Below, in pieces: positions 362 to 16,092 of a stretch of 64,000 bases of DNA. The position numbers and the translations under genes are program-made. The notes under the pieces are model-generated. The model saw only the letters and a list, made by a program, of their open reading frames with translations, did not search any database and had not been told where the DNA came from. The stretch is taken from positions 318,135-382,134 of the forward strand of contig CAXSBC010000003.1 in assembly GCA_964236105.1 (NCBI GenBank), in the 5' to 3' direction. How positions within the stretch are numbered: the stretch's first letter is position 1; each line of letters starts with the position of its first letter. The DNA is from an uncultured Acetobacteraceae bacterium. Its GTDB lineage: Bacteria > Pseudomonadota > Alphaproteobacteria > Acetobacterales > Acetobacteraceae.

Positions 362-3300
362 TCAGCGGAAGTCCCGCGTCGGCACCTTGATCGGCGGCGT
401 GACGCGATCGCGGCCATGCGCGTCGTCGGACGAGGCGGCGCCGCGCTCCAGGCCGCGCAGCATCGGCGTCAGATCCTCCAGCCGGTCGGCCACCAGATGC
501 ACGACCTCGCCCGTCCGCTGCACCCGCCCGTGGCAGGCGATCAGGCCGGCCGACAGGATCAGGCTGCGCTGGCGCGTGAACAGCGACGGCCAGATCACGA
601 GGTTGCCGATGCCCGCCTCGTCCTCGATGGTCATGAACATCACGCCCTTGGCCGAGCCGGGCTTCTGGCGCACCAGCACGATGCCGGCGACGCCGAGGCG
701 CCGTCCGTCGCGCGCGGTGGCCAGCACGCCGCAGGACAGCAGCGCGCGGGCCTGCAGGGCAGGGCGCAGCAGCGACAGCGGGTGGCGCTTCAGGCTCAGG
801 CCGGTGGTGCGGTAGTCGGCCACCACCTCGCCGCCGTTCCCGAGCGGCGACAGCAGCGTCGCCGGCTCGTTCGCGGTCGCTCCCGGCAGGCGGGCGAACA
901 GCGGCAGCGTCGCCTCGTCCAGCCCGCGCACGATCCAAAGCGCCTCGCGACGCGGCAGGCCCAGCGCGTGGAAGCCGTCCGCCTGCGCGATCTTCTCCAG
1001 GGCCGCGGGCGGCAGGCCGGTGCGCTGGCGCAGATCCTCGATGGAGCGCCAGGGCCCCCCGGTCCGGGGGGCGATCAGCCGATCGGCCTCGGCCTGCGAC
1101 AGGCCGCGCACCATGCGCAGGCCGAGCCGCACGGCGAGATGCGGACCGTCCGCCGGCTCCAGCGTGCAGTCCCAGGCGCTGGCGGCGACACAGACCGGCC
1201 GAACCGGCACGCCGTGCTCGCGCGCATCGCGCACGATCTGTGCCGGCGCATAGAAGCCCATCGGCTGCGCGTTCAGCAGGGCGGCGCAGAACACGTCCGG
1301 GTGGTGGCATTTCATCCAGGCGCTGGCATAGGCGATCTTGGCGAAGCCGGCGGCGTGGCTCTCGGGAAAGCCGTAGGAGCCGAAGCCCTCGATCTGGTTG
1401 AAGGTGCGCTCGGCGAAGGCGCGCTCGAAGCCATGCGCGATCATGCCGTCGATCAGCTTGTCCTTGAACCGGCCGACGCCGCCGGTGACCTTGAAGGTCG
1501 CCATCGAGCGGCGCAGCTGGTCGGCCTCGCCCGGCGTGAAGCCGCCGCAATGGATCGCCACCTGCATCGCCTGTTCCTGGAACAGCGGCACGCCCAGCGT
1601 CTTCTCCAGCACGCGACGCAGGCTGTCCTGGGGATATTCCGGCTTCTCCATCCCGTCGCGCCGGCGCAGATAGGGGTGCACCATGTCGCCCTGGATCGGT
1701 CCCGGCCGGACGATCGCCACCTGAATCACCAGGTCGTAGAGGCAGCGCGGCTTCAGCCTGGGCAGCATCGCCATCTGCGCCCGGCTCTCGATCTGGAAGG
1801 TGCCGAGCGTGTCGGCGCGGCAGATCATGTCGAAGGTGGCCGCGTCCTCGCGCGGGATCCTCGACAGATCGAGCCTGCGGCCGCGATGCAGCGCCAGCAG
1901 GTCGAAGGCGCGTCGCATGCAGCCGAGCATGCCGAGCCCCAGCACGTCGACCTTCATGAACCGCAGCGTGTCGATGTCGTCCTTGTCCCATTCGATCACC
2001 TGCCGGTCGGCCATCGCGGCGGGCTCGATCGGCACCAGGCGGTCGAGGCGGTCGCGGGTCAGTACGAAGCCGCCCGGGTGCTGGCTGAGATGGCGCGGAA
2101 ACCCGATCAGCTCCCTGGCCAGCATCAGCGTCAGGCGCAGCCGGCGATCGGAAACGTTCAGGTTGACCGCGGCCGCCTGGCTCTCGTCGACGCCCTCCTC
2201 GCTCCAGCCCCAGACCTGACCCGCGAGCTGGGCGGTGACGTCCTCAGGCAGGCCCATCACCCGGCCGACCTCGCGCACGGCACCGCGCGAGCGGTAGCGG
2301 GCGACGGTGGCGCACAGGGCGGCGCGGTCGCGGCCGTAGCGCTCGAACACCCACTGGATCACCTCCTCGCGCCGCTCATGCTCGAAATCGACGTCGATGT
2401 CGGGCGGCTCGTGGCGATCGGCGGAGATGAAGCGCTCGAACAGCAGGTTGCTGTCCGCCGGATCGATCGCGGTGATGCCGAGCACGAAGCAGACCGCCGA
2501 GTTGGCGGCCGAGCCGCGCCCCTGGCACAGGATCCCGGCGCCGCGGGCGAAGCGGACGATGGCGTTCACGGTCAGGAAGTAGGGGGCGTAGCGGAGCTGC
2601 CGGATCAGCCCGAGCTCGTGCGCGATCTGTGTGGAGACGTCGGCGGGCGTGCCCTGCGGATACACCACCGGCAGGCGCCCGCGCACCAGCCGTTCCAGAT
2701 CCTCCTGGTCCGACAGGCCGGGAGTCTCGCTTTCCTCCGGATACTGGTAGCTGAGCTCCGACAGGCTGAAGCGGCAGCGGCCGAGGATGGTGCGGGACGC
2801 CGCGAGCGCGTGCGGATGGTCGCGCCCGAACAGCCGCACCATTTCGTCCTCGCTCTTGAGATGGCGGTCGACCGAGCGGGTGCGGCGATAGCCGGCATCG
2901 TCGATGGTGCAGCCCTCGCGGATGCAGGTGATGACGTCGTGCAGGATGCGGCGATCGGGCGCGTGGTAGAGCACGTCGCCGGTCACCACCGTCGGCACGC
3001 CGGCCGTGCGGCACAGCGCCTCGGTGCGGGCCAGCCGCGCGCGATCGTTGGGCCGGCGCTCCAGCGTCAACGCGCACCAGCCGCGCTCGCCGAAGCAGGC
3101 GCGCAGCCGGTCGAGATCGGCGGGCAGGCTGTCGTCCAGCGCCTCCAGCGGCCGCTCCGGCAGCAGGATGGCCAGCAGCCCCTGGCTCAGGCTGGCGAGG
3201 TCCGACCACCACAGCTCGCAGGCGCCCTTGCCGGCACGCGACTTGCCGAGGCTGAGCAGCTGGCAGAGCCTGGCATAGGCCTCGCGATCGGTCGGGTAGA

Positions 3301-5232: not shown

Positions 5233-5944
5233 CGGAAGCCTGCACCATCCAGTGGAAAGGGAATGCCGCCTCGCGGCAGCGCAGCAGCTCGAGCCGCCAA
5301 AGGGCGCGTCCGGGCGGCAGGTCGAAGGATCGCGCCGGTGTCGGCTGCGGGAGTGCCGCCACCCGCCACCGGCTGACCGCGGCACTCGCTTCCAGCAGGA
5401 CCGGGTCGTCGAAGCGCCGGCTGCGTCGGATCGCAAACGCGGTGACGCCGGAGGAGGCCGCCGCGAGCTGCAGGCGGCGCGACGCCGTCAGGCCAAGCCT
5501 GCCCTCCACTTCGCCGACCACCGCGACCAGGCCGGGATGACGCAGCGCCTCCTCCATCACGGCCAGCACGGCGTCGCCGCATTCGGCGAGAATGAGACGG
5601 TGCGGATGCAGGCCGACCGCCGCGAGGCCCGGCGCGAACAGGTCGCGGCCCTGCATCGCCCACAGCACCTGCCGGGTCGGATCGAGGCCAGCCAGCAGCC
5701 CGCCGATCAGCAGGCTGGCGACGGTGCCGTGCTCGGTATCCGGACCTTGCCCCAGCACCTCGTGCAGGGCGCCGGCGGGCAGGCCGCCGCAGGGCAGCCT
5801 GCTGTCGATCGCCTGCAGGCCGAAACGGATGCCGGCCTTGTGCGCGACAGGCGATGCCAGGCCGCCCAGCCGGCCGATCCGGGCCCGCAGCGCCTCGATC
5901 GTCTTCGTTTGGCTGTGCGGACTGCTCTCCACGATTCGCTCCAT
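5120..5944 (-). CDS. imuA: SOS cell-division-inhibitor/RecA-like protein ImuA
   Basis: ATG at 5944 (MERIVESSPHSQTKTIEALRARI...), 274 aa. The block ...LPCGGLPAGALHEVLG... is typical of ImuA. It is the first gene of the cassette, with a LexA box immediately upstream. It overlaps imuB by 113 nt. Confidence 0.75.
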   Translation of the reverse strand: MERIVESSPHSQTKTIEALRARIGRLGGLASPVAHKAGIRFGLQAIDSRLPCGGLPAGALHEVLGQGPDTEHGTVASLLIGGLLAGLDPTRQVLWAMQGRDLFAPGLAAVGLHPHRLILAECGDAVLAVMEEALRHPGLVAVVGEVEGRLGLTASRRLQLAAASSGVTAFAIRRSRRFDDPVLLEASAAVSRWRVAALPQPTPARSFDLPPGRALWRLELLRCREAAFPFHWMVQASDAQGHLADAVAEDRLSLAALLADGPAQAQARPGGRHG

Positions 5945-5960
5945 CGTATGTCGACGATGA

Positions 5961-5975
5961 GAACGTATAGGGAAC
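5961..5975 (-). promoter_or_regulatory. LexA (SOS) box, alphaproteobacterial type
   Basis: The + strand reads GAACGTATAGGGAAC, which is GTTCCCTATACGTTC on the coding strand. This is an exact GTTC-N7-GTTC direct repeat. It lies 16 nt upstream of the imuA ATG at 5944. Confidence 0.7.
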
Positions 5976-6142
5976 AAACTGTTTCTGAGGGAAGTCCGCA
6001 GATGCGGTGGCTGCGAACGACGAGAGCAGTGCCTGTTCAGAGGCTGATGCAGCAGCGTCCGCTAGGCCGCTGACTATACGATAGTGCTACCGATGCAACG
6101 GCCTTGCCGTCTGGCTTAATGTGTAGGCGTAAAGCCCTGATT

Positions 6143-6985
6143 TCACTGATCTATGCTGCCGTTCAACCGATTTCTGAGCAGAAGCCCGTCGGCGCTTGCG
6201 GGATCGATCAGGCCGCGGCGCAGGAACAGGTCGATCAGCACCAGGTTCACGTTGAACTTGAACTGGTCGGTATCGCGCACGAGGCGCAGCGCTTCCTCCA
6301 GCGCGATCAGCGTGAACGCCACGACCTCGCCATCGGCGGGCACCGGCTGGAAGCTGTCCGGCAGCACGAGGTCGAAGCAGTGCAGCCGGTCCCGGCGCAG
6401 GCCTTCCGGCCGGCTCATGGCATAGGCGATCATGCCGACCGGCACCGCCGCACGGGCGAGTTCCGGCGGCAGGCTGCACTCCTCGGCGCCCTCCTTTTCC
6501 AGCGTGCGCAGGGCGTCGTAGCCCGCCGGCACCCCGCCCGCGACCAGATGGTCCAGCTTGTCCGGATCGAGCAGCTTATCCGGCGCCCGGCGTCCGATCC
6601 ACAGATGCGTGCCGTCCGCGCGCTCGACGAGGCCGTTCAGGTGCACGCCGTCCGCCAGGATGCCGAAGCCCGGCAGCCCGCCGCGATCCAGCCTGGCCAG
6701 CACCGGCCCGTCCGGCTCGGCCCGCACGTCGAACGCCTCCGAGCGGAAGCGGAACAGCCCGGCCTGCGCCAGCTCCTGCCCGAGCGGCTCCAGCCGCAGC
6801 GGATCCTCCAGCACGAGCCGGTTGCCGTCATGGCGCACCCCGCGTCGCTCCAGCTCGAGCGCCAGTGCCGGCGCGATCCAGCCGACCTGGTGGTCGCCGA
6901 GCAGGAAGGGGAAGCGGCCGCCGGGCAGGCGGGCGTTGTTGCAGGCGTCGACGTGGCGCAGGAACGGGGCGATCGGACTGGTCAT
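6143..6985 (-). CDS. Nudix hydrolase family protein (DUF4743-like)
   Basis: ATG at 6985 (MTSPIAPFLRHVDACNN...), 280 aa. It carries a degenerate Nudix box, GGVPAGYDALRTLEKEGAEECSL. The longer ORF-track start at 7132 would run into the divergent ABC gene. Confidence 0.6.
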   Translation of the reverse strand: MTSPIAPFLRHVDACNNARLPGGRFPFLLGDHQVGWIAPALALELERRGVRHDGNRLVLEDPLRLEPLGQELAQAGLFRFRSEAFDVRAEPDGPVLARLDRGGLPGFGILADGVHLNGLVERADGTHLWIGRRAPDKLLDPDKLDHLVAGGVPAGYDALRTLEKEGAEECSLPPELARAAVPVGMIAYAMSRPEGLRRDRLHCFDLVLPDSFQPVPADGEVVAFTLIALEEALRLVRDTDQFKFNVNLVLIDLFLRRGLIDPASADGLLLRNRLNGSIDQ

Positions 6986-7068
6986 GCGGCACCGTCCGCC
7001 AGCAGGCCCCGGCTTGGCAATCGGTCGATGTGCTTTGCAATCGATATCCTGCATGCCACATCCGGCTG

Positions 7069-8946
7069 ATGAGAGATTTCGCCCCGTCCAAGCCGGCGCC
7101 GCCGTCCGATCCGGCATCGCGACAGACCGCACTGGAAACGGTGCGCGGCCTGCTGCCCTATCTCTGGCCGCGCGGCGACATCCGCACGCGTCTGCACGTC
7201 GTCGGCGCCATCGTGCTGCTGATCGCGGCCAAGGTGGCGACGATCTGCGTGCCGATCGTCTATGCCCGCGCGATCGACCGGCTGTCGCACCGCGATCCCA
7301 CCCACATGCTGGTGGTGCCGATCGGGCTGATCGTCGGCTACGGGCTGCTGCGCATCGCCTCGGGCGCCTTCGGGGAGCTGCGCGACGCGGTGTTCTCGCC
7401 GGTCAAGCAGCGGGTGATCCGGGTGGCGGCGATGCAGACCTTCGGCCACCTGCACCGGCTGTCGCTGCGCTTCCATCTCGACCGCCAGACCGGCGGCGTG
7501 ACCCGGGCGGTCGAGCGCGGCACCCAGGCGATCGAGCTGATCCTGCGCCTGGGGGTGTTCAACATCGTGCCGACGCTGATCGAGACGCTGATGGTCACGG
7601 GCGTGATCTGGGCGCTGTTCGACTGGCGTTTCGCGATGGCGACGCTGCTGACGGTGGTGGTGTATGTCGGCTTCACCATCGCCTTCACCGGCTGGCGCAT
7701 CGGCATCCGCCGCCGCATGAACGAGGTCGAGAGCGAGGCCAGCACCAAGGCGCTGGACAGCCTGCTCAACTACGAGACGGTCAAGTATTTCGGCAACGAG
7801 GCCCACGAGGCCAGGCGCTACGACGACACCCAGAGCCGCTACGAGCGCGCCGCGGTGAAGACCCAGGTCTCGCTCAACCTGCTCAATATCGGCCAGGCCA
7901 CGATCATCGCCGTGGCGCTCGCCGCCATCATGCTCATGGCGGCCCAGGGGGTGGCGGCGGGCCGCCTCACGGTCGGCAAGTTCGTGCTGGTGAACACCTA
8001 TCTGATGCAGCTCTACACGCCGCTGAACTTCCTGGGCTTCGTGTATGCGTCGCTGCGTCAGGGCGTGGTGGATCTGGAGCAGATGTTCCGGCTGCTGGGC
8101 CAGAGCCAGGAGGTGCGTGACGCGGCCGACGCGCGGCCCTTGCCCGGCCGGCTCGAGGATGCGCCGCCGGCCGAGGTGCGGTTCGAGGCGGTGCATTTCG
8201 GCTACCAGCCGAACCGCGAGATCCTGCACGGGGTGAGCTTCGCGATCCGGCCGGGCGGCCGCACCGCGATCGTGGGACCCACCGGTGCCGGCAAGTCGAC
8301 CATCAGCCGGCTGCTGTTCCGCTTCTACGACGTCGATACCGGCCGGGTGATGCTCGACGGCCGCGACGTGCGCGACTACGCCCAGGACAGCCTGCGCGCC
8401 GCCATCGGCGTGGTGCCGCAGGACACGGTGCTGTTCAACGACACCATCCGCTACAACATCGCCTATGGCCGCATCGGCGCCTCCCAGGCCGAGATCGAGC
8501 ACGCGGCCCGGCTGGCGCAGGTGCACGACTTCGTTGCCGGCCTGCCGGACGGCTACGATACCCGCGTCGGCGAGCGCGGCCTGAAGCTGTCGGGGGGCGA
8601 GAAGCAGCGCGTGGCGATCGCGCGCACCATCCTCAAGAATCCGCGCATGCTGATCCTGGACGAGGCCACCAGCGCGCTCGACACCCACACCGAGCAGGAG
8701 ATCCAGTCGGCGCTGCGCACGGTCGCCGCCGACCGCACCACGCTGGTGATCGCCCATCGCCTGTCGACGGTGGTGGATGCCGACGAGATCCTCGTGCTGG
8801 TGGGCGGGCTGATCGCCGAGCGTGGCACGCACCGCGCGCTGCTGGGGCAGGGCGGCGTCTATGCGCGGATGTGGGCGGCGCAGTCGGAGGAGGATTCGGG
8901 TCTGCCGCTGCTGCCCGAGCGGGTGCAGGCCGAACTGGCCGATTGA
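7069..8946 (+). CDS. ATM1/AtmA-type ABC exporter (fused permease-ATPase)
   Basis: ATG at 7069 (MRDFAPSKPAP...), 625 aa. An N-terminal multi-helix exporter domain is followed by an NBD with Walker A GPTGAGKST, signature LSGGEKQRVAIAR and Walker B MLILDEATSALD. Confidence 0.85.
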   Translation: MRDFAPSKPAPPSDPASRQTALETVRGLLPYLWPRGDIRTRLHVVGAIVLLIAAKVATICVPIVYARAIDRLSHRDPTHMLVVPIGLIVGYGLLRIASGAFGELRDAVFSPVKQRVIRVAAMQTFGHLHRLSLRFHLDRQTGGVTRAVERGTQAIELILRLGVFNIVPTLIETLMVTGVIWALFDWRFAMATLLTVVVYVGFTIAFTGWRIGIRRRMNEVESEASTKALDSLLNYETVKYFGNEAHEARRYDDTQSRYERAAVKTQVSLNLLNIGQATIIAVALAAIMLMAAQGVAAGRLTVGKFVLVNTYLMQLYTPLNFLGFVYASLRQGVVDLEQMFRLLGQSQEVRDAADARPLPGRLEDAPPAEVRFEAVHFGYQPNREILHGVSFAIRPGGRTAIVGPTGAGKSTISRLLFRFYDVDTGRVMLDGRDVRDYAQDSLRAAIGVVPQDTVLFNDTIRYNIAYGRIGASQAEIEHAARLAQVHDFVAGLPDGYDTRVGERGLKLSGGEKQRVAIARTILKNPRMLILDEATSALDTHTEQEIQSALRTVAADRTTLVIAHRLSTVVDADEILVLVGGLIAERGTHRALLGQGGVYARMWAAQSEEDSGLPLLPERVQAELAD

Positions 8947-9008
8947 CCGCATGGGTCCTGGCGGCCCTGCCGGGGGCGGCCCATGTGTGCCGCATGAGGG
9001 AGAACGAG

Positions 9009-9290
9009 ATGAGCTTCGATCCGAAGGGCGAGCAGACGCTGGGTCAGGACGGGTCGGTTCCGTCGGAGCTGAGCCACGCGGGCGCCGTGGTCGACAAGTC
9101 GATCGAATACATGCTGGGCGAGAGCCTGCCGCCGCTGGCGATCGCGTCGGCGCTGCTGGGCGGCTCGCTCGGCCTGCTGGCGCGCACGATGGACCGCGGC
9201 GCGATGGTCAGGATGCTGGAGAACGCGATCGCCAGCGTGAAGGCGGGCGAGCTCGATCCCGCCCGCGACCGCGAGTTGGGACGCTCCTGA
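9009..9290 (+). CDS. Hypothetical small protein (93 aa)
   Basis: ATG at 9009 is preceded by GGGAGAA. The product MSFDPKGEQTLGQDGSV...AIASALLGGSLGLLARTM...KAGELDPARDRELGRS has ordinary composition, unlike the antisense artefact ORFs. No family was recognised. Confidence 0.4.
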   Translation: MSFDPKGEQTLGQDGSVPSELSHAGAVVDKSIEYMLGESLPPLAIASALLGGSLGLLARTMDRGAMVRMLENAIASVKAGELDPARDRELGRS

Positions 9291-9323
9291 CGCGGCCGCG
9301 GGCGGCGGGTGCCAAGTGAGCGC

Positions 9324-9352
9324 TTGACGGATCATGCCGGCTTGGCGATAAG
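9324..9352 (+). promoter_or_regulatory. Candidate sigma70-type promoter for rpmB
   Basis: TTGACG at 9324-9329, a 17-nt spacer, then GATAAG at 9347-9352. It lies about 100 nt upstream of rpmB. Pattern match only. Confidence 0.3.
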
Positions 9353-9451
9353 CCGCGCCTCCATGAGACGTGACGCCGGACCGGGTGCGCCGGCGTCTTG
9401 CTGTTCGTCTCCGGCTCGGCCGGAGGCTCTGCGACCCTGAGGATCAAGACG

Positions 9452-9757
9452 ATGTCGCGCCGCTGCGAGATGACCGGCAAGGGCGTGCTGACGGGCAACA
9501 ACGTCAGCCACGCCAACAACAAGAGCCGCCGCCGCTACCTGCCGAACCTGCAGGAGCAGTCGGTGCTGTCGGACGTGCTGGGCACCTCGATCCGGATCCG
9601 TGTGACCACGCACGGCCTGCGCACCATCGAGCATAATGGCGGCCTCGACGCCTTCCTGCTGACGACGCCGAATCGCCGTCTGCCGGAGGAGGCGCAGTCG
9701 CTGAAGCGTCGCATCCTGCGCGCCCAGGCCAAGAAGCAGGCCGCCGCCACCGCCTGA
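9452..9757 (+). CDS. rpmB: 50S ribosomal protein L28
   Basis: [34 protein letters not shown]... is the L28 signature. 101 aa, with GAGGA 8 nt upstream of the ATG. Confidence 0.9.
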
Positions 9758-9917
9758 GCCGGCGCGTGGCCCGGGCCCCAGGGTCCGGCCTTGCAAAACA
9801 AGGGCATCTCGCGCATGTGAGGGCCCAACAGTGTTTCGGCCGCCAGGCTCTGCCCGCGGCCCTGGAAGCGTGCGGGGTGTTGCCCGGTGCGCTTTCCTGG
9901 TTTGAGGAGAACCCGTC

Positions 9918-11999
9918 ATGTCCGAGCTCTCGAAGATCCGCAATATCGGCATCACCGCGCACATCGACGCGGGCAAGACGACGACGACGGAACGCATCCT
10001 CTACTACACCGGGGTCTCGCACCGGATCGGTGAGGTCCACGAGGGCAACACCACGACGGACTACATGGAGCAGGAGCGCGAGCGGGGGATCACCATCACC
10101 TCGGCTGCGGTCACGTGCGAGTGGAAAGAGCACCGCATCAACATTATCGACACGCCCGGCCATATCGACTTCAACATCGAGGTGAACCGGTCCCTGCGCG
10201 TGCTCGACGGCGCCATCTTCATCATCGAGGGCGTGGCCGGCGTGCAGCCGCAGTCGGAAACCAACTGGCGTCTCGCCGACCGCTACAACGTGCCGCGCAT
10301 CATCTTCATCAACAAGCTGGACCGCACGGGTGCCGACTTCTACCGCGCGTTCGACACGCTGAAGGAGAAGCTCGACATCGTGGCACTGCCGCTGCAGCTG
10401 CCGATCGGCATCGAGGAGAACTTCCTCGGCGTGGTCGACCTGGTCGAGATGAAGGCGATCATCTGGGAGGGCGGCGAGCTCGGCGCCAAGTTCCACGACG
10501 AGGAGATCCCGGCCGACATGGTCGAGCGCGCCGCCGAGGCCCGCCAGCTGCTGCTCGACACCGCGCTCTCGGTCGATAACGAGGCGATGGAGGAGTATTT
10601 CGACAAGGGCGACGTCGACGTCGCGACCCTGAAGCGCTGCATCAAGGCGGGCGCCATCTCCGGCGTGTTCCGTCCGGTGCTGTGCGGCACCGCCTTCAAG
10701 AACAAGGGCGTGCAGCCGCTGCTCGACGCCGTGCTCGACTATCTGCCGGCTCCCGACGACCGCGAGGGCATCCGCGTCGCCGCCGAGGAAGGCCAGGAGG
10801 ATGCCGATCCGAGCACCCGCCGCCTGATCAAGGTCGACCCCAAGGGCAACTTCTCGGGTCTGGCGTTCAAGATCATCAACGACAAGTACGGCACGCTCAC
10901 CTTCGTGCGCGTGTATTCGGGATCGCTGAAGTCCGGCGACCAGGTGATGAACACCACCAAGGACCACAAGGAGCGCATCGGCCGCATGTTCCAGATGCAC
11001 GCCGACAAGCGTGCCGAGATCAAGGAAGTGCAGGCGGGCGACATCGCGGCGTTCGTGGGGCTGAAGGATACCGGCACCGGCGACACGCTGGCCGATGCGG
11101 GCGACCCGGTGGTGCTGGAGCGCATGGCGTTCCCGGTGCCGGTGATCGACATCTCCGTCGAGCCGAAGACCAAGGAGGCGGTGGAGAAGATGACGCTGGC
11201 GCTGCAGAAGCTCGCCGGCGAGGACCCGTCGCTCCGCCTCAAGACCGACCAGGAGACCGGCCAGACCATCCTGTCCGGCATGGGCGAGCTGCATCTCGAG
11301 ATCATCATCGACCGTCTGCGCCGCGAGTATGGCGTCGACGCCAATATCGGCGCGCCGCAGGTGGCGTATCGCGAGACCATCAGCAAGACGCACATCGAGA
11401 CCTATACCCACAAGAAGCAGTCGGGCGGCTCCGGGCAGTATGCCGAGGTCAAGATCCAGTTCTCGCCGGTCGAGCGCAACGCCGGCATCTCCTTCGAGAA
11501 CAAGGTCGTGGGCGGCACGGTACCGAAGGAATACATCCCGGCGGTCGAGAAGGGCATCAAGGTGCAGGCGAGCACCGGCGTGCTGGCCGGCTTCCCGACG
11601 GTGGACTTCAAGTACACCCTGCTCGACGGCAAGTACCATGACGTCGACAGCTCGGCGCTGGCGTTCGAGATCGCGGCGAAGGCCTGCTTCCGCGAGGGCA
11701 TGAAGCGCGCCAGCCCGGTGATCCTGGAGCCGATCATGGACGTCGAGTGCACCACCCCGCAGGACCATGTCGGCGACGTGGTCGGCGATCTCAACCGTCG
11801 CCGCGGCCAGATCCAGAACCAGGAAAGCTCGGGCTCGACCGTCCTGGTCCGTGCCCAGGTGCCGCTGAAGGAGATGTTCGGCTACATCTCGCACCTGCGC
11901 TCCATGACCAAGGGCCGCGCGTCCTTCACCATGCAGTTCCATCACTACGATCCGGTGCCGCGCAACATCGCCGACGAGATCATGTCGAAGTCCGCCTGA
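9918..11999 (+). CDS. fusA: Elongation factor G family GTPase (paralog outside the str operon)
   Basis: 693 aa, with GAGGAGA upstream. G motifs [17 protein letters not shown] and NKLD are present. EF-G domains II-V are recognisable (...[22 protein letters not shown]..., ...[16 protein letters not shown]..., ...[14 protein letters not shown]...). Confidence 0.9.
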
Positions 12000-12020: not shown

Positions 12021-12050
12021 AAGGCCGGTCCGGAAGGGCCGGCCTTTTTT
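12021..12050 (+). terminator. Rho-independent terminator after the EF-G gene
   Basis: AAGGCCGG-(tccggaaggg)-CCGGCCTT forms a hairpin followed directly by TTTTTT. It starts 22 nt after the stop codon. Confidence 0.7.
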
Positions 12051-12423
12051 GTTGCCGCAGCACGCGATCATGCGCATCGACGTTCGCTGGCCTCGTTCGG
12101 GCGGGCCATGCGGAGGTCCCCACCCGCGTCCACAATCTGCGACGGATTTCACGCTTCTGGCACGACCGGCGGTAGAAAATCGACCGACCGGCGCCAGGCT
12201 GGCGGTCCATCGACGTGTCTCCACAAGCATTGGCTGACGAGATCGACGGTAATTATTCAAAAAGTCTTGTTTTCTGGACGCTTGCGAAGAATTTGACTTC
12301 TCATGGCGAGTTGATGCGGCCGCTTTGATCGATAATGCTAACGATTGGTCTGCAGCGGGAAGGCGGCTCGGAGATGATGTCCTGTCGTGCGTACGCGTCC
12401 GGGATCAACGGGATGCAGAGGCG

Positions 12424-14409
12424 ATGACCATCCATCCCGCTCCCGGCGCTCTCGTCGACCGCAGCATGTCCTCAGGCGCCGATCGCCAGTCGCCCAGGGT
12501 CGGCGCGGCGACGGTCGGCCATGCCTACAGCTACGCGCATGTGCCGAACGGCAGCTGGAGCGATCCGGCCAGCTGGATCGTCGATGACGGAACGCCGGCG
12601 ACCGCGCCGCCGGGCGCCGACGACAGCGTGACGATCTCGGGCGACGAATACGACCCCGACGGGGTGCCGTTCTACATCACCGGCGACGGCCAGGCCGCCA
12701 GCCTCGCGGTGTCGCACAGCGTGGTGTTCCGGGGCGCGGTCACCACCGGCAGCCTGGTGATCGGCACCGGCTCGTCGTCATCGCCCGCCGTGACCGTGTC
12801 GGTGGATCCGGACGCATCGCTGGAGGCGGCCTCGGCCACCCTTCTCAGCCAGCTGGTGGCGATCGGCAGCGGCAGCCGCTTCATCGTCGATGCCACCCTG
12901 ACCATGGGCGCCGACGCGGACCAGGCGGTCGCGGCCAGCCTCTCGACCAGGCTCGGCGGCAGCATCCAGCTGGGCGGGCTGGAGCTGGAGCAGGGCAGCG
13001 TCAGCATCGACGACAGCGGCAGCATGACGATCGGCACGTCCGGCATCGTGCGTGACGGCATGGTGTCGGTGGCAGCCGACGGGGTGCTGCAGGTCGGACA
13101 CGGCACCATCGACGGCGCGATCTGGAACGACGGGCTGATCCGCCTCGACGAGACCGCGAACCCGTTCGGCGGCAGCATCGAGGGCAGCGGCACCATTGCG
13201 ATCGAGAGCGGCGCCATCCTGCTGCTCTCGAGCACGCTGGACGACGATCAGCATCTGCGCTTCGACGGCCCGAACGCGGCCCTGGCGCTGGACGGCATCT
13301 ATACCGACGACGCGTTCACCCGGATCGCGGGCTTCGACGCCAGCGACCGCATCGTGCTGGACCAGACGGTGTCCGACTACAGCTACAGCCTCGACGGCAC
13401 CGCGTCCGCGTCGGTGCAGGTGGAGCTGTCGGGCGGCGGCACCGAGGCCTACGTCTTTACCGGCGACTACGACGGCGAGCGGTTCGAGATCGGCCAGGAC
13501 GATGGCGGTTCCGATCCGGCGATCCTGATCGTATCGGATGCCGTCGCGTGCTTCTGCTCGGGAACGCTGATCGCGACGCAGTCGGGCGACCGGCCCGTGG
13601 AGCAGCTTGCCATCGGCGATCGCGTGCGAACGGCGGGCGGCGCGTTGAAGCCGGTGCTGTGGATCGGCCGGCGCAGCTACGACCGGCGCTACGCCGCCGG
13701 CAAGCCGCACCTGCAACCGGTCCGCATCCGTGCCGGCGCGCTGGGCGACGACCTGCCGCATCGCGATCTGCTGGTGTCGCCAGGACACGCGATCCTGGTG
13801 CAGGACGCGCTGGTGCCGGCAGGGCTGCTGGTGAACGACGTGTCGATCCTGCCGGACGAGGAGGAGGACGACATCCACTACCTGCATGTCGAGGTCGAGG
13901 GCCATGAGCTGCTTCTGGCCGAAGGTGCCGTGGCGGAAAGCTTCGTCGACAGGGACAGCCGGACGATATTCGGCAATGTCGAGGAGTATGCCCGGCTCTA
14001 TCCCGACCGGAGCCGGACGCCGCAGCCATGGTGCGCGCCACGTATCGAGGACGGCCCGGTGCTGGCCGCGATCAGGCGCCATCTCTGCATCCGGGCCGGG
14101 CTCGCGGAGCCGGCGCCGCTGCCGCCCGTCTATGGGCATGTCGACGAGGCCGGCCCGGGCCACGTGCGCGGCTGGGCGTGGTGTGCGGCCCATCCCGATG
14201 CCCCGGTGCTGCTGGACATCCTGGTCTGCGGCCGCATCGCGAGCCAGGTGCTGGCGGACCGGTTCCGTCCCGATCTGGCGGCCGCCGGGGTCGGCGCCGG
14301 CTGTCACGGCTTCGAGGCGGCCCTGCCGGACGTGGAGCGGACCTCGGTCATCACGGTCCGACGCGCGCTCGACGGACTGGGTCTGACGCCTCCGCCGCCG
14401 GCCCCGTAG
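12424..14409 (+). CDS. Hint (Hedgehog/intein-like) domain-containing protein with a repetitive N-terminal region
   Basis: The ORF is open from TTG 12325; the first in-frame ATG is at 12424 (661 aa). The Hint_2-type module runs from the Cys codon at 13549: CFCSGTLIATQSGDRPVEQLAIGDRVRT...VSPGHAILV...IHYLHVEVEGHELLLAEGAVAES. The N-terminal ~370 aa is G/S/D/T-rich and repetitive. No signal peptide was seen. Confidence 0.75.
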   Translation: MTIHPAPGALVDRSMSSGADRQSPRVGAATVGHAYSYAHVPNGSWSDPASWIVDDGTPATAPPGADDSVTISGDEYDPDGVPFYITGDGQAASLAVSHSVVFRGAVTTGSLVIGTGSSSSPAVTVSVDPDASLEAASATLLSQLVAIGSGSRFIVDATLTMGADADQAVAASLSTRLGGSIQLGGLELEQGSVSIDDSGSMTIGTSGIVRDGMVSVAADGVLQVGHGTIDGAIWNDGLIRLDETANPFGGSIEGSGTIAIESGAILLLSSTLDDDQHLRFDGPNAALALDGIYTDDAFTRIAGFDASDRIVLDQTVSDYSYSLDGTASASVQVELSGGGTEAYVFTGDYDGERFEIGQDDGGSDPAILIVSDAVACFCSGTLIATQSGDRPVEQLAIGDRVRTAGGALKPVLWIGRRSYDRRYAAGKPHLQPVRIRAGALGDDLPHRDLLVSPGHAILVQDALVPAGLLVNDVSILPDEEEDDIHYLHVEVEGHELLLAEGAVAESFVDRDSRTIFGNVEEYARLYPDRSRTPQPWCAPRIEDGPVLAAIRRHLCIRAGLAEPAPLPPVYGHVDEAGPGHVRGWAWCAAHPDAPVLLDILVCGRIASQVLADRFRPDLAAAGVGAGCHGFEAALPDVERTSVITVRRALDGLGLTPPPPAP

Positions 14410-14415
14410 CCGCCG

Positions 14416-16092
14416 ATGACCTCGACATTGCGGGGCCAGCTCGACTCGGTCGATCGCACGGTCATCCGGGGCTGGGCGCAGGATGCATGGTGGCCGGCAC
14501 AGCCGGTCAGCCTGCTGGTGACCGTCAACGGCACTCTGCTCGGCCGGATCGTCGCCAACCGCTTCCGGCAGGATCTCGCCGATGCCGGCCTCGGCACCGG
14601 TCGCCACGCGTTCGAGCTGCGGCTGGGCAACGCGCTGTCGCCGGTGTCGATGCACCAGATCCGGGTGACGCGGGAGCTCGACGGCGTCGAGCTCGACCGG
14701 TCGCCCTGGCTGCTGGAGCCGGTGCCGGTGTTGGATCAGGCAGCGCTCGACCGCCTGTCCGACCTGCTCGGCGACGGGATCGAGACCGACCGGGCCGGGC
14801 TGGATCGCCGGCTCGACTTCCTGCTGCACCAGGTCGACCGGCTGCTGACGATCCGGGCGCGCCAGCAGACGGCGGCGGGCGAGGCTGCCGGCGATGCCGC
14901 CGCATGGCGCGCGAGCCGGGTTGCGTCATCCACCGTCGCGGCGCCCGCGGCCGCCTGCCGCCAGGCGCTCGTCATCGACGAGCTGATGCCCGACGGCGGA
15001 CGCGACGCCGGATCGTGCGCGGTGCTGTCGCACATGATGTCGCTGCGTCGGCTCGGCTTTGCGGTGCTGTTCGTTCCGGCCAGCCTGTCGCCGGCACGGC
15101 AGGAGGGGCCGTTGTCCGGACGCCTGGCGGCACTCGGCATCGCCGTCTGCACCGCGCCGTACTACGCCTCGGTCGAGGAGGTGCTGCAGCGTCACGGCGC
15201 CGGGCTGGAGCTGGTCTATCTGCATCGCGGCCCGACCGCGTTCCGTTACGCCCGGCTGGTCCGGCATCATTGTCCGCACGCCCGGGTGCTGTATGCGGTG
15301 GCGGATCTGCATCATCTGCGGCTCGGCCGTCAGGCCGAGGTCGAGCGGCGGCCGGAGCTGCTGCCCCTGGCGCGGCAGCACCGGCAGCGCGAGCTGGAGA
15401 CCGCCGCCGCGGCCGACATCGTGCTCACCCACTCCTCGCACGAGGCCAGGCTGCTCGCGCAGGCGCTGCCGCACGCCAGGATCCACGTCGTTCCCTGGGC
15501 GGTGCCGCTTCGTCCGGTGGCGGCATCGTTCAGCTCCCGCCTCGGCGTCGCCTTTCTGGCCGACTATGCGCACGCGCCCAACCTGGAGGCGGCGCGTCGG
15601 CTGGTGCGCGAGATCATGCCGCTGGTCTGGGAGCATGCACCCGAGCTGCCATGCCTGCTGGCCGGCAGCCGGATGCCGCCCGGCCTCGTCGGCAGCGATC
15701 CGCGCCTGGTGCCGGTCGGCCACGTGCCGGAGCTGGCGTCACTGTTCGCGCGCGTGCGGCTGACGGTGGCACCGCTCGCCTACGGCGCCGGGATCAAGGG
15801 GAAGGTGCTGGAAAGCCTGGCTGCCGGCGTTCCGTGCGTCTGCTCGCCGATCGCAGCCGAGGGCCTGGACCTGCCCGAGGCGCTGACGCGGTGGGTCGCC
15901 GGCGACACGCACGGCCTGGCGCGGGCGATCCTGACGCTGCACCGGAACCCCGCGCTGAACCGCTCGGCCGCCCAGGCCGGTCTCGACTGGGCGCAGGACC
16001 GGCTGTCGGCGGACCGGATCGACCGGCTGCTCGGCGCCGCCCTGTCGCGGCGACCCGTGCCGGCGGATCGCGAGCGGGCGGACGCTGGCTGA
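14416..16092 (+). CDS. Glycosyltransferase family 1 (GT-B fold) protein with an N-terminal module shared with the upstream Hint protein
   Basis: 558 aa; the ATG lies 6 nt after the Hint gene stop. The C-terminal Glycos_transf_1-like core includes ...IVLTHSSHEARLL..., ...GVAFLADYAHAPNLEAARRLVREIMPLV... and ...LTVAPLAYGAGIKGKVLESLAAGVPCVCSPIAAEGL. Confidence 0.75.
   Translation: MTSTLRGQLDSVDRTVIRGWAQDAWWPAQPVSLLVTVNGTLLGRIVANRFRQDLADAGLGTGRHAFELRLGNALSPVSMHQIRVTRELDGVELDRSPWLLEPVPVLDQAALDRLSDLLGDGIETDRAGLDRRLDFLLHQVDRLLTIRARQQTAAGEAAGDAAAWRASRVASSTVAAPAAACRQALVIDELMPDGGRDAGSCAVLSHMMSLRRLGFAVLFVPASLSPARQEGPLSGRLAALGIAVCTAPYYASVEEVLQRHGAGLELVYLHRGPTAFRYARLVRHHCPHARVLYAVADLHHLRLGRQAEVERRPELLPLARQHRQRELETAAAADIVLTHSSHEARLLAQALPHARIHVVPWAVPLRPVAASFSSRLGVAFLADYAHAPNLEAARRLVREIMPLVWEHAPELPCLLAGSRMPPGLVGSDPRLVPVGHVPELASLFARVRLTVAPLAYGAGIKGKVLESLAAGVPCVCSPIAAEGLDLPEALTRWVAGDTHGLARAILTLHRNPALNRSAAQAGLDWAQDRLSADRIDRLLGAALSRRPVPADRERADAG

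Follow-up and report, generated by a model that had tools for sequence, protein, structure and literature searches.

The window analysed here is a stretch of 64,000 nucleotides from an uncultured Acetobacteraceae bacterium (GenBank assembly GCA_964236105.1, contig CAXSBC010000003.1, positions 318,135 to 382,134 of the forward strand), which carries a gene for a protein with a Hint_2 autoprocessing domain and, next to it, a gene for a glycosyltransferase (GT). Sequence comparison gives good support to the view that the two genes are the halves of one functional unit, representing the split version of an architecture that recurs as a single chain. At least sixteen proteins elsewhere combine an N-terminal cargo, Hint_2 and a GT of the GT4 type in one polypeptide, and in the window a domain of about 88 residues, here called X, ends the first protein and opens the second. 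The Hint assignment itself is ordinary; what is unexpected is that an autoprocessing domain is wired to a GT in a conserved way. The parts of the two genes are listed below, with residues numbered from the ATG at 12424; models were made with AlphaFold2 (AF2), and GC3 stands for the GC content of third codon positions.

12424..14409, forward strand: Hint-protein gene, 661 amino acids, TAG stop at 14407-14409; the exact protein (P0001) is called from the same ATG
12424..12510, forward strand: N-terminal ~29 residues, disordered in the AF2 model (pLDDT <50 at residues 1-28) and not hydrophobic
12511..13548, forward strand: cargo domain, residues ~30-375, G/S/D/A-rich, all-beta, beta-helix-like and adhesin-passenger-like
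13549..13950, forward strand: Hint_2 autoprocessing domain, residues 376-509, with Cys376, S452-P-G-H455, H488, H494 and E505-S506-F507
13954..14106, forward strand: post-Hint extension (PostHint), residues 511-561, two helices with conserved R513, F516, N518, P527 and G544
14122..14376, forward strand: X domain copy 1, residues 567-651 within a beta-sandwich of ~88 amino acids (~566-653), with the motif GWA...A..xR.DL..AG.G.G.HGF
14407..14418, forward strand: junction, made of the TAG stop, the 6-nt spacer CCGCCG and the GT start codon ATG, which is in frame with the Hint gene
14416..16092, forward strand: GT gene, 558 amino acids, GC3 0.90
14422..14688, forward strand: X domain copy 2 at the GT N-terminus (hidden Markov model (HMM) E 2.5e-29; 40% identity to copy 1 by BLASTP)
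14926..16089, forward strand: GT-B (GT4-like) catalytic core, Pfam Glyco_trans_1_4 with 50.6 bits (cut-off 27)

The last ~90 residues of the Hint-protein tail and the first ~95 of the GT are homologous stretches, the 40% identity of the two X copies extending over 91 residues (BLASTP, E 2e-14). The GT is laid out as X, linker and GT-B core, and by HMM the window arrangement is Hint-PostHint-X followed by X-GT. An earlier note on this DNA, drawn from the sequence alone, had described the end of the Hint protein as a tail of about 150 amino acids without a nameable domain, and the GT as its partner gene. It is correct that no Pfam or NCBIfam model covers the tail; the tail nevertheless resolves into the conserved PostHint and the widespread X. 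The next gene is indeed a Glyco_trans_1_4 member, yet no mere neighbour, having the common X and being the other half of the fused architecture.

The complete layout cargo-Hint-PostHint-X-X-GT was found in 8 of the best 150 X-domain representatives (P0199, P0207, P0211, P0214, P0225, P0228, P0233 and P0237), which carry AIDA repeats (PF16168), Hint_2 and Glyco_trans_1_4, and 6 of the best 120 GT homologues also have the fused layout (P0299, P0310, P0321, P0326, P0341 and P0352). P0014 is organised as Hint-PostHint-X-GT, the same protein of 1037 amino acids being present in four assemblies, and further fused forms are found in loci L079 and L086. An open reading frame (ORF) of 1996 amino acids in a metagenome-assembled genome of the Xanthobacteraceae (L008, 734-6724) encodes five tandem T6SS_HCP domains, PKD-like repeats, Hint_2 and the GT4 core, with the GT directly after PostHint and no X between them. 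The cargo of the fused forms consists mostly of AIDA-type or passenger-type beta-helix repeats; their matches to Glyco_transf_4 remain below the cut-off (21-25 bits vs 28.5). Split forms are divided either after X (the window, L003, L005, L165, L078 and L104) or directly after PostHint (L122, L126 and L130), and in Acetobacteraceae KSS8 (L005) and L165 the pair stands in unrelated contexts. The fused and split forms make the Hint-GT pairing a conserved unit rather than an accident. The earlier note had proposed a survey of how often Hint genes pair with a GT in other genomes, and of 80 metagenomic Hint_2 loci examined, 9 had a GT linked to Hint; the linkage recurs and has structure, yet is not universal.

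A Lichenicola genome carries a syntenic locus (L003, 8001-13137) with two consecutive Hint-PostHint-X genes (673 and 1008 amino acids) followed by one X-GT gene, and a third Hint-X gene elsewhere (P0006, L004) that has no adjacent GT. This genome encodes at least three Hint-X proteins, and the loci retrieved from it contained just one X-GT homologue, as might be expected if X were a docking tag used in trans. Other gene arrangements include four metagenomic loci (L115, L119, L124 and L129) in which three or four Hint_2 ORFs follow one another on the same strand. In L073 the fused P0211 gene is preceded by an ORF of 1477 amino acids (5607-10040) with the same AIDA-like repeats and a low-complexity P/S/A/R tail, which overlaps the start of P0211 and suggests a frameshift in a possibly still longer fused gene.

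The junction between the two window genes has a counterpart in L165, where an in-frame TAA, 6 nt and an ATG follow each other (3145-3156). The L165 Hint protein is only 47% identical to that of the window, and because the junction layout is nevertheless the same, the split reads as old and maintained and not as a sequencing error or a fresh pseudogene; the two loci differ in their stop codons and in their flanking genes. Programmed TAG readthrough was considered and dropped, since the corresponding stop of L165 is a TAA and the two ORFs of L003, like those of L005, are out of frame with each other. An inherited nonsense split of a fused ancestor would be the simpler reading of the junction, at which low-level TAG readthrough may occur. 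One-to-one orthology of the window copies X1 and X2 with the first and second X of the fused proteins was rejected, both fused copies being nearer to X2.

Fused and split forms could also have arisen without any functional coupling. Hint_2 cassettes would then recombine into the 5' ends of X-GT genes via the common X, Hint would merely cut the resulting chimera, cargo and GT would work independently, and the adjacency in the window would be the relic of a fusion split by a nonsense mutation. Several data agree with this explanation, which we regard as rather unlikely: bacterial intein-like (BIL) domains sit in hypervariable, non-conserved proteins, where they are sources of variability (PMC7765530), X-GT genes are widespread and mostly stand-alone (1108 matches to the family), most Hint-X genes are without a GT, fused and unfused forms are interspersed in a rough GT tree, the window split resembles a single in-frame nonsense event, and the fused copies Xa and Xb are not clearly orthologous to X1 and X2. 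What speaks for coupling instead is that the pair is retained across genomic contexts and that the split points, three in number, all keep the order of the domains. The conserved position of the stop in two diverged loci, the window and L165, argues for maintenance, genes of the TibC type recur beside the fused forms, and the Hint protein retains its X even when encoded away from any GT.

The earlier note had placed the Hint protein in the ORF 12325..14409 of the forward strand, and all four peptide strings quoted there, as well as the Hint strings, are included in its translation. TTG 12325 is merely the longest mechanical ORF start; ATG 12424 is the start in the gene calls of two public assemblies (P0001; locus L001), which matches the numbering of the proposed nucleophile as Cys376. 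The 3.7-kb segment with the Hint and GT genes has an identical copy in an independent Logan assembly. GC3 is 0.87 in the Hint gene and 0.90 in the GT gene, values which are typical of real genes at a genome GC of ~70%.

A Hint module of the Hint_2 type had been proposed to begin at the Cys codon 13549-13551. Profile search bears this out, as Pfam Hint_2 (PF13403) matches with E 3.5e-44 (151.2 bits vs a cut-off of 28.4) over profile positions 2-145 of 147, i.e. residues 409-542 in TTG numbering, of which the first is this very Cys (the local HMM match also starts at 13549). Hint_2 is the sole Hint-type family listed by the Pfam scan at E<=0.1. In an alignment of 42 homologues Cys376, H455, Y486, H494, A499 and E505 are invariant and S452, H488 and G501 nearly so. 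The nucleophile of block A is Cys376 in all 42 (motif C[FY]xxGT), and the TxxH-type motif of block B reads S452-P-G-H455, with S452 at the TxxH position (S in 41/42, T in one) and H in 42/42. The terminal His-Asn of intein block G is absent from residues 484-519, where the conserved AEGxxxE[ST][FY] closes the Hint core. The modelled, horseshoe-like Hint fold matches the gp41-1 intein (6qaz; Foldseek TMt 0.71, prob 1.00) and also the C. thermocellum BIL domain 2lwy. An intein was rejected, given that the terminal His-Asn is missing and that the flanks, beta-helix and X, are unrelated rather than halves of one protein.

Hint_2 is probably equivalent to the B-type BIL domain, as judged by the motif CF..GT.I.T..G, and by the motifs tested the protein is a Hint_2 member of the B-type BIL kind. 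It shares with this type a strong profile match, the N-terminal Cys, the TxxH-like SPGH and the lack of a C-terminal His-Asn, together with the setting in a non-conserved alphaproteobacterial protein with N-terminal domains of the secreted type. It differs in that no conserved extension behind Hint, no beta-sandwich at the C-terminus and no GT4, whether fused or neighbouring, was reported for the BIL proteins described. B-type BIL domains have the intein motifs except the C-terminal one, and are cleaved at the N-terminal junction in an intein-like manner, atypically also at the C-terminal one, and do not splice (PMC4031507, PMC7765530). The earlier note knew of no experimental characterisation of such a protein, which holds for the architecture as a whole; for its Hint type, biochemical demonstration of autocleavage is on record (Amitai 2003 and Dassa 2004, cited after the reviews PMC4031507 and PMC7765530). 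N-terminal autocleavage mediated by Cys376, which would free the beta-helix, is a well-supported expectation because of the Hint_2 match and the B-type motif features, and with no Asn for C-terminal cleavage of the intein type the N-terminal thioester chemistry would be the main reaction.

The region in front of Cys376 had been described as repetitive and adhesin-like, a description which the modelling upholds. Residues 1-375 are composed of 13.1% G, 12.5% S, 12.0% A, 10.9% D and 6.9% T, and in the AF2 model of the Hint protein (42 homologues, mean pLDDT 88.6) short regular strands run throughout residues ~30-372, with pLDDT mostly >90. The all-beta cargo gave a marginal match to Pfam Hyphal_reg_CWP (28.2-30.7 bits, cut-off 28) and a weak Foldseek match to the A-domains of Candida Awp1/Awp3b (E 1.5e-3, TMt 0.37), and relatives of the Hint protein are annotated with autotransporter passenger or AIDA-type repeats; as modelled, the N-terminus is a beta-helical, adhesin-like region. 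The fungal Hyr/Awp A-domains (PDB 7o9q, 7o9p) are right-handed beta-helices, and the similarity, at 13% identity and the low TMt, probably reflects the generic beta-helix fold and implies no evolutionary or functional equivalence.

The statement that the protein lacks a signal peptide, an RTX motif and a barrel proved accurate as well. The hydropathy scan showed no signal peptide or hydrophobic segment at the N-terminus, the regex search no GGxGxD nonapeptide, and the Pfam scan no HemolysinCabind match, no beta-barrel family and, down to E<=10, no toxin family. Two types of exported protein were rejected accordingly, the type Va autotransporter of the AIDA kind (no Sec signal peptide, no barrel, X at the C-terminus) and the RTX substrate of type I secretion (no GGxGxD, no HemolysinCabind).

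Behind the Hint core, PostHint lies outside the Pfam Hint_2 model and is present in 41/42 aligned homologues and in most Hint_2 loci surveyed. A second nucleophile in PostHint was rejected, the Cys of its WCAPR motif being <80% conserved. Among 91 homologues Hint, PostHint and X are conserved and the N-termini vary, including Hcp, RTX, PPC, laminin-type, subtilase and AIDA repeats; X stands at the extreme C-terminus in 35 of the 91.

A model of X by itself, built on 32 copies, shows a beta-sandwich of six strands and a short helix (AF2, pLDDT 95.6). No family was found for the tail, X or the GT N-terminus in Pfam, NCBIfam or PHROGs, and sequence searches of PDB yielded no significant match for the X profile, the Hint protein or the GT. 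Foldseek with X alone returned just generic FN3/Ig-like neighbours (TM ~0.5, E ~0.1), too generic for a specific structural family to be assigned. A weak likeness to the C-terminal domain of fluorinases came up twice, with PDB fluorinases (E 0.056) and, in a separate search, with TIGR04507 (below cut-off). By exhaustive profile search X occurs in 14,742 cluster representatives at 50% identity (7,253 at E<=1e-10), often as a long tandem array, which can reach 15 copies in one protein. Among 53 multi-copy proteins that were sampled, its partners are glycan-handling enzymes (GT2, WbsX, methyl- and sulfotransferases, radical SAM, TPR) as well as secreted proteins (type IX secretion (T9SS) sorting domain, subtilase, PA14). 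The X-bearing proteins P0092-P0241 include GT2, WbsX, methyl-/sulfotransferase, radical SAM and T9SS-sorted members. X is, by its sequence distribution, a promiscuous module, the presence of which alone assigns no function.

The surroundings of the gene pair in the window include one further feature on the upstream side.

12021..12046, forward strand: intrinsic-terminator-like hairpin and T-run, an 11-bp stem with 8 GC pairs and a TTTTTGTT tail, 3' of the EF-G-like gene

The gene directly upstream codes for an EF-G-like GTPase with all five EF-G domains (9918-11999), at the end of which lies this strong hairpin; the same EF-G-like gene is also found 5' of the Hint genes in Lichenicola. The hairpin sets the EF-G-like gene apart from the transcription unit of the pair. 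Between the Hint and the GT gene no sequence resembling a terminator was found, and 3' of the GT gene follows a convergent S10 peptidase gene. For these three reasons the Hint and GT genes, as far as sequence features tell, probably form a transcription unit of their own. There is no small immunity-like ORF 3' of the pair. The neighbours and ten other window genes checked have housekeeping functions (SUF, Lon, trigger factor, nuo, RNase J).

More informative for function are the neighbours of the fused relatives, since genes for TibC-type adhesin heptosyltransferases adjoin fused forms in three independent loci, in each case beside a Hint-X-X-GT fusion gene.

L073, 4238-5554: TibC-type gene
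L074, 7918-9066 and 15109-16641: TibC-type genes
L159, 5613-6929: TibC-type gene

A sulfotransferase gene is also near the fused form in L073, and a methyltransferase gene in L074. The ORFs upstream in L159 were considered as a separate cargo and rejected, being ordinary signal-peptide proteins without beta-helix repeats. Aah and TibC belong to the BAHT heptosyltransferase family and glycosylate AIDA-type beta-helix passengers in the cytoplasm. The window resembles the AIDA-I/Aah and TibA/TibC pairs in that a Ser/Gly-rich, beta-helical, passenger-like domain is encoded beside a cytoplasmic GT, and its fused relatives carry AIDA repeats (PF16168) and adjoin genes of the TibC type. It differs from AIDA-I and TibA in having no signal peptide and no beta-barrel translocator, and from Aah and TibC in that the enzyme is Glyco_trans_1_4 and not TibC_1st/Glyco_transf_9, and in that cargo and enzyme are linked via Hint and the common X. 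The three stand-alone X-GT relatives whose context was read are alone or in a Tad pilus locus, and none is in a polysaccharide cluster, a context typical of protein-modifying glycosyltransferases. The relative in the Tad/Flp cluster (P0313; L162, 8001-10361; 786 amino acids) is encoded between CpaF/TadB/TadC and TadE/TadG, a position which hints at pilin or surface-protein glycosylation.

Taken as a whole, these data lead us to a tentative reading, to which we give a little less than an even chance. The X domain of the Hint protein would pair with that of the GT, as the two are neighbours in one chain in the fused relatives, and the pairing would hold a cytoplasmic, sugar-nucleotide-dependent GT on the precursor. 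The GT would then glycosylate the tethered beta-helix cargo before its release, in the way that AIDA-I and TibA are glycosylated by Aah and TibC. Cys376 would carry out an N-to-S acyl shift on the Ala375-Cys376 bond and, once the thioester is resolved, the cargo would be freed from the Hint-PostHint-X stub and exported by a non-Sec route. The domains, the conserved catalytic residues, the common X, the fused and split forms and the conserved operon are observed directly; X-X docking, glycosylation of the cargo and export we infer.

A number of observations weigh against this reading. None of the family members checked has a signal peptide, which leaves no export route that could be named, and no secretion-system genes were seen among the window genes checked. 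No TibC homologue was found in the window by tblastn with three TibC-like proteins, which makes the X-GT the only candidate modifying enzyme there, and GT4 is not an enzyme family known for glycosylating autotransporter passengers. In the 80-locus survey a GT was missing beside 13 Hint-PostHint-X genes for which 1.2 kb or more of downstream sequence was available, and 114 of the best 120 X-GT proteins are without Hint. As X is promiscuous, occurring in secreted proteins and many other enzymes, it may be a generic spacer. P0326 (L159, 7001-9616; at least 24 contigs) has the layout Hint-PostHint-X-X-GT with an N-extein of only six residues (MHSLPA|CFCSGT) and is essentially without cargo, and the cargo of L008 is made of Hcp and PKD-like domains; both are awkward for a cargo-specific GT and are among the reasons for keeping the alternatives in view.

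An independence of the link from the type of cargo would be accounted for by a Hedgehog-like adduct transfer, in which PostHint, X and the docked or fused GT act like the sterol- or adduct-recognition region of Hog proteins. A sugar, a group derived from a nucleotide sugar, or the hydroxyl or amine of a glycolipid would attack the Ala375-Cys376 thioester, and the signal-less beta-helix cargo (or the Hcp or AIDA-type cargo) would carry a covalently bound glycan or glycolipid on its C-terminus, for anchoring or routing to the surface. Hedgehog/Hog proteins likewise have a variable N-terminal cargo, a Hint domain starting at a Cys and a conserved C-terminal region, the adduct-recognition concept applying to the latter, and release their cargo via a C-terminal thioester (PMC2362128). 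The presence of the conserved post-Hint extension in nearly all relatives, the covalent fusion of the GT after Hint in at least 16 proteins, including L008 where no X intervenes, and the thioester chemistry expected of a Hint without the Asn for C-terminal cleavage all fit this scheme. We consider it improbable all the same: it is without bacterial precedent, no Asp or His was identified as a counterpart of the residue that activates cholesterol, GT-B enzymes transfer sugars from nucleotide donors and are not known to present nucleophiles to thioesters, most Hint-PostHint-X proteins are without a nearby GT, and P0326 has virtually nothing to transfer. No Hog family appeared in the Pfam scan (E<=0.1). 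Classification as a Hog protein itself was rejected, the C-terminal region consisting of two helices and a beta-sandwich (plus GT-B in the fused forms), with no sterol-recognition region.

The Hcp domains that open some relatives (P0012, L008) could also be read as those of an effector system. In such a system, akin to polymorphic toxins, the beta-helix or Hcp would be the delivery or stalk module, Hint the releasing peptidase, and X, or X-X-GT in the fused forms, the effector, for example as a GT acting on the target cell. The earlier note had leaned towards a comparison of this kind, noting at the same time the lack of a toxin domain and of an immunity-like ORF; the Pfam scan and gene order agree on this lack, and the framing fits poorly with a conserved C-terminal part, a variable N-terminus and Hint_2 as the only Hint-type family in the scan. 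In polymorphic toxins HINT is a releasing peptidase directly upstream of the toxin domains (PMC3482391), and the resemblance extends to a Hint-superfamily autoprocessing module in a large multi-domain protein and to N-terminal modules of the exported type, including RTX, subtilase and passenger repeats. The differences are that no C-terminal toxin and no immunity gene are present, the gene after the GT being that of a convergent peptidase, that the Hint subfamily is another one, and that the variability is the reverse of that of polymorphic toxins. The window protein moreover ends in an 88-aa beta-sandwich and not in an enzyme, and the GT family consists mostly of stand-alone chromosomal genes. 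The known glycosyltransferase toxins are GT-A enzymes. Zhang et al. (2012) stated that HINT was never found with modules of the type VI secretion system (PMC3482391), a further point against this explanation, which we hold to be very improbable; a polymorphic toxin in the strict sense was rejected on account of the missing toxin, the missing immunity gene and the conserved C-terminus. P0012, with the layout Hcp-Hint_2-X, and the Hcp-Hint fusion of L008 contradict that published statement.

A literature search yielded no description of a Hint-GT association, of the post-Hint extension or of X, which is not proof of absence. Hint_2/BIL domains are common in alphaproteobacteria, and for their biological role the sole idea so far is the variability of secreted proteins. 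A sizeable subset of Hint_2 proteins is firmly tied, through gene fusion or a conserved operon, to one particular GT family via a common domain, and that domain is a beta-sandwich of ~88 amino acids without a Pfam or NCBIfam model despite ~15,000 sequence clusters and many glycan-modifying enzymes among its carriers. The GT is the first concrete functional partner to test for bacterial Hint_2. The finding links protein autoprocessing with protein glycosylation, and a Hedgehog-style "cleave and conjugate" reaction in bacteria becomes testable with a two-gene construct.

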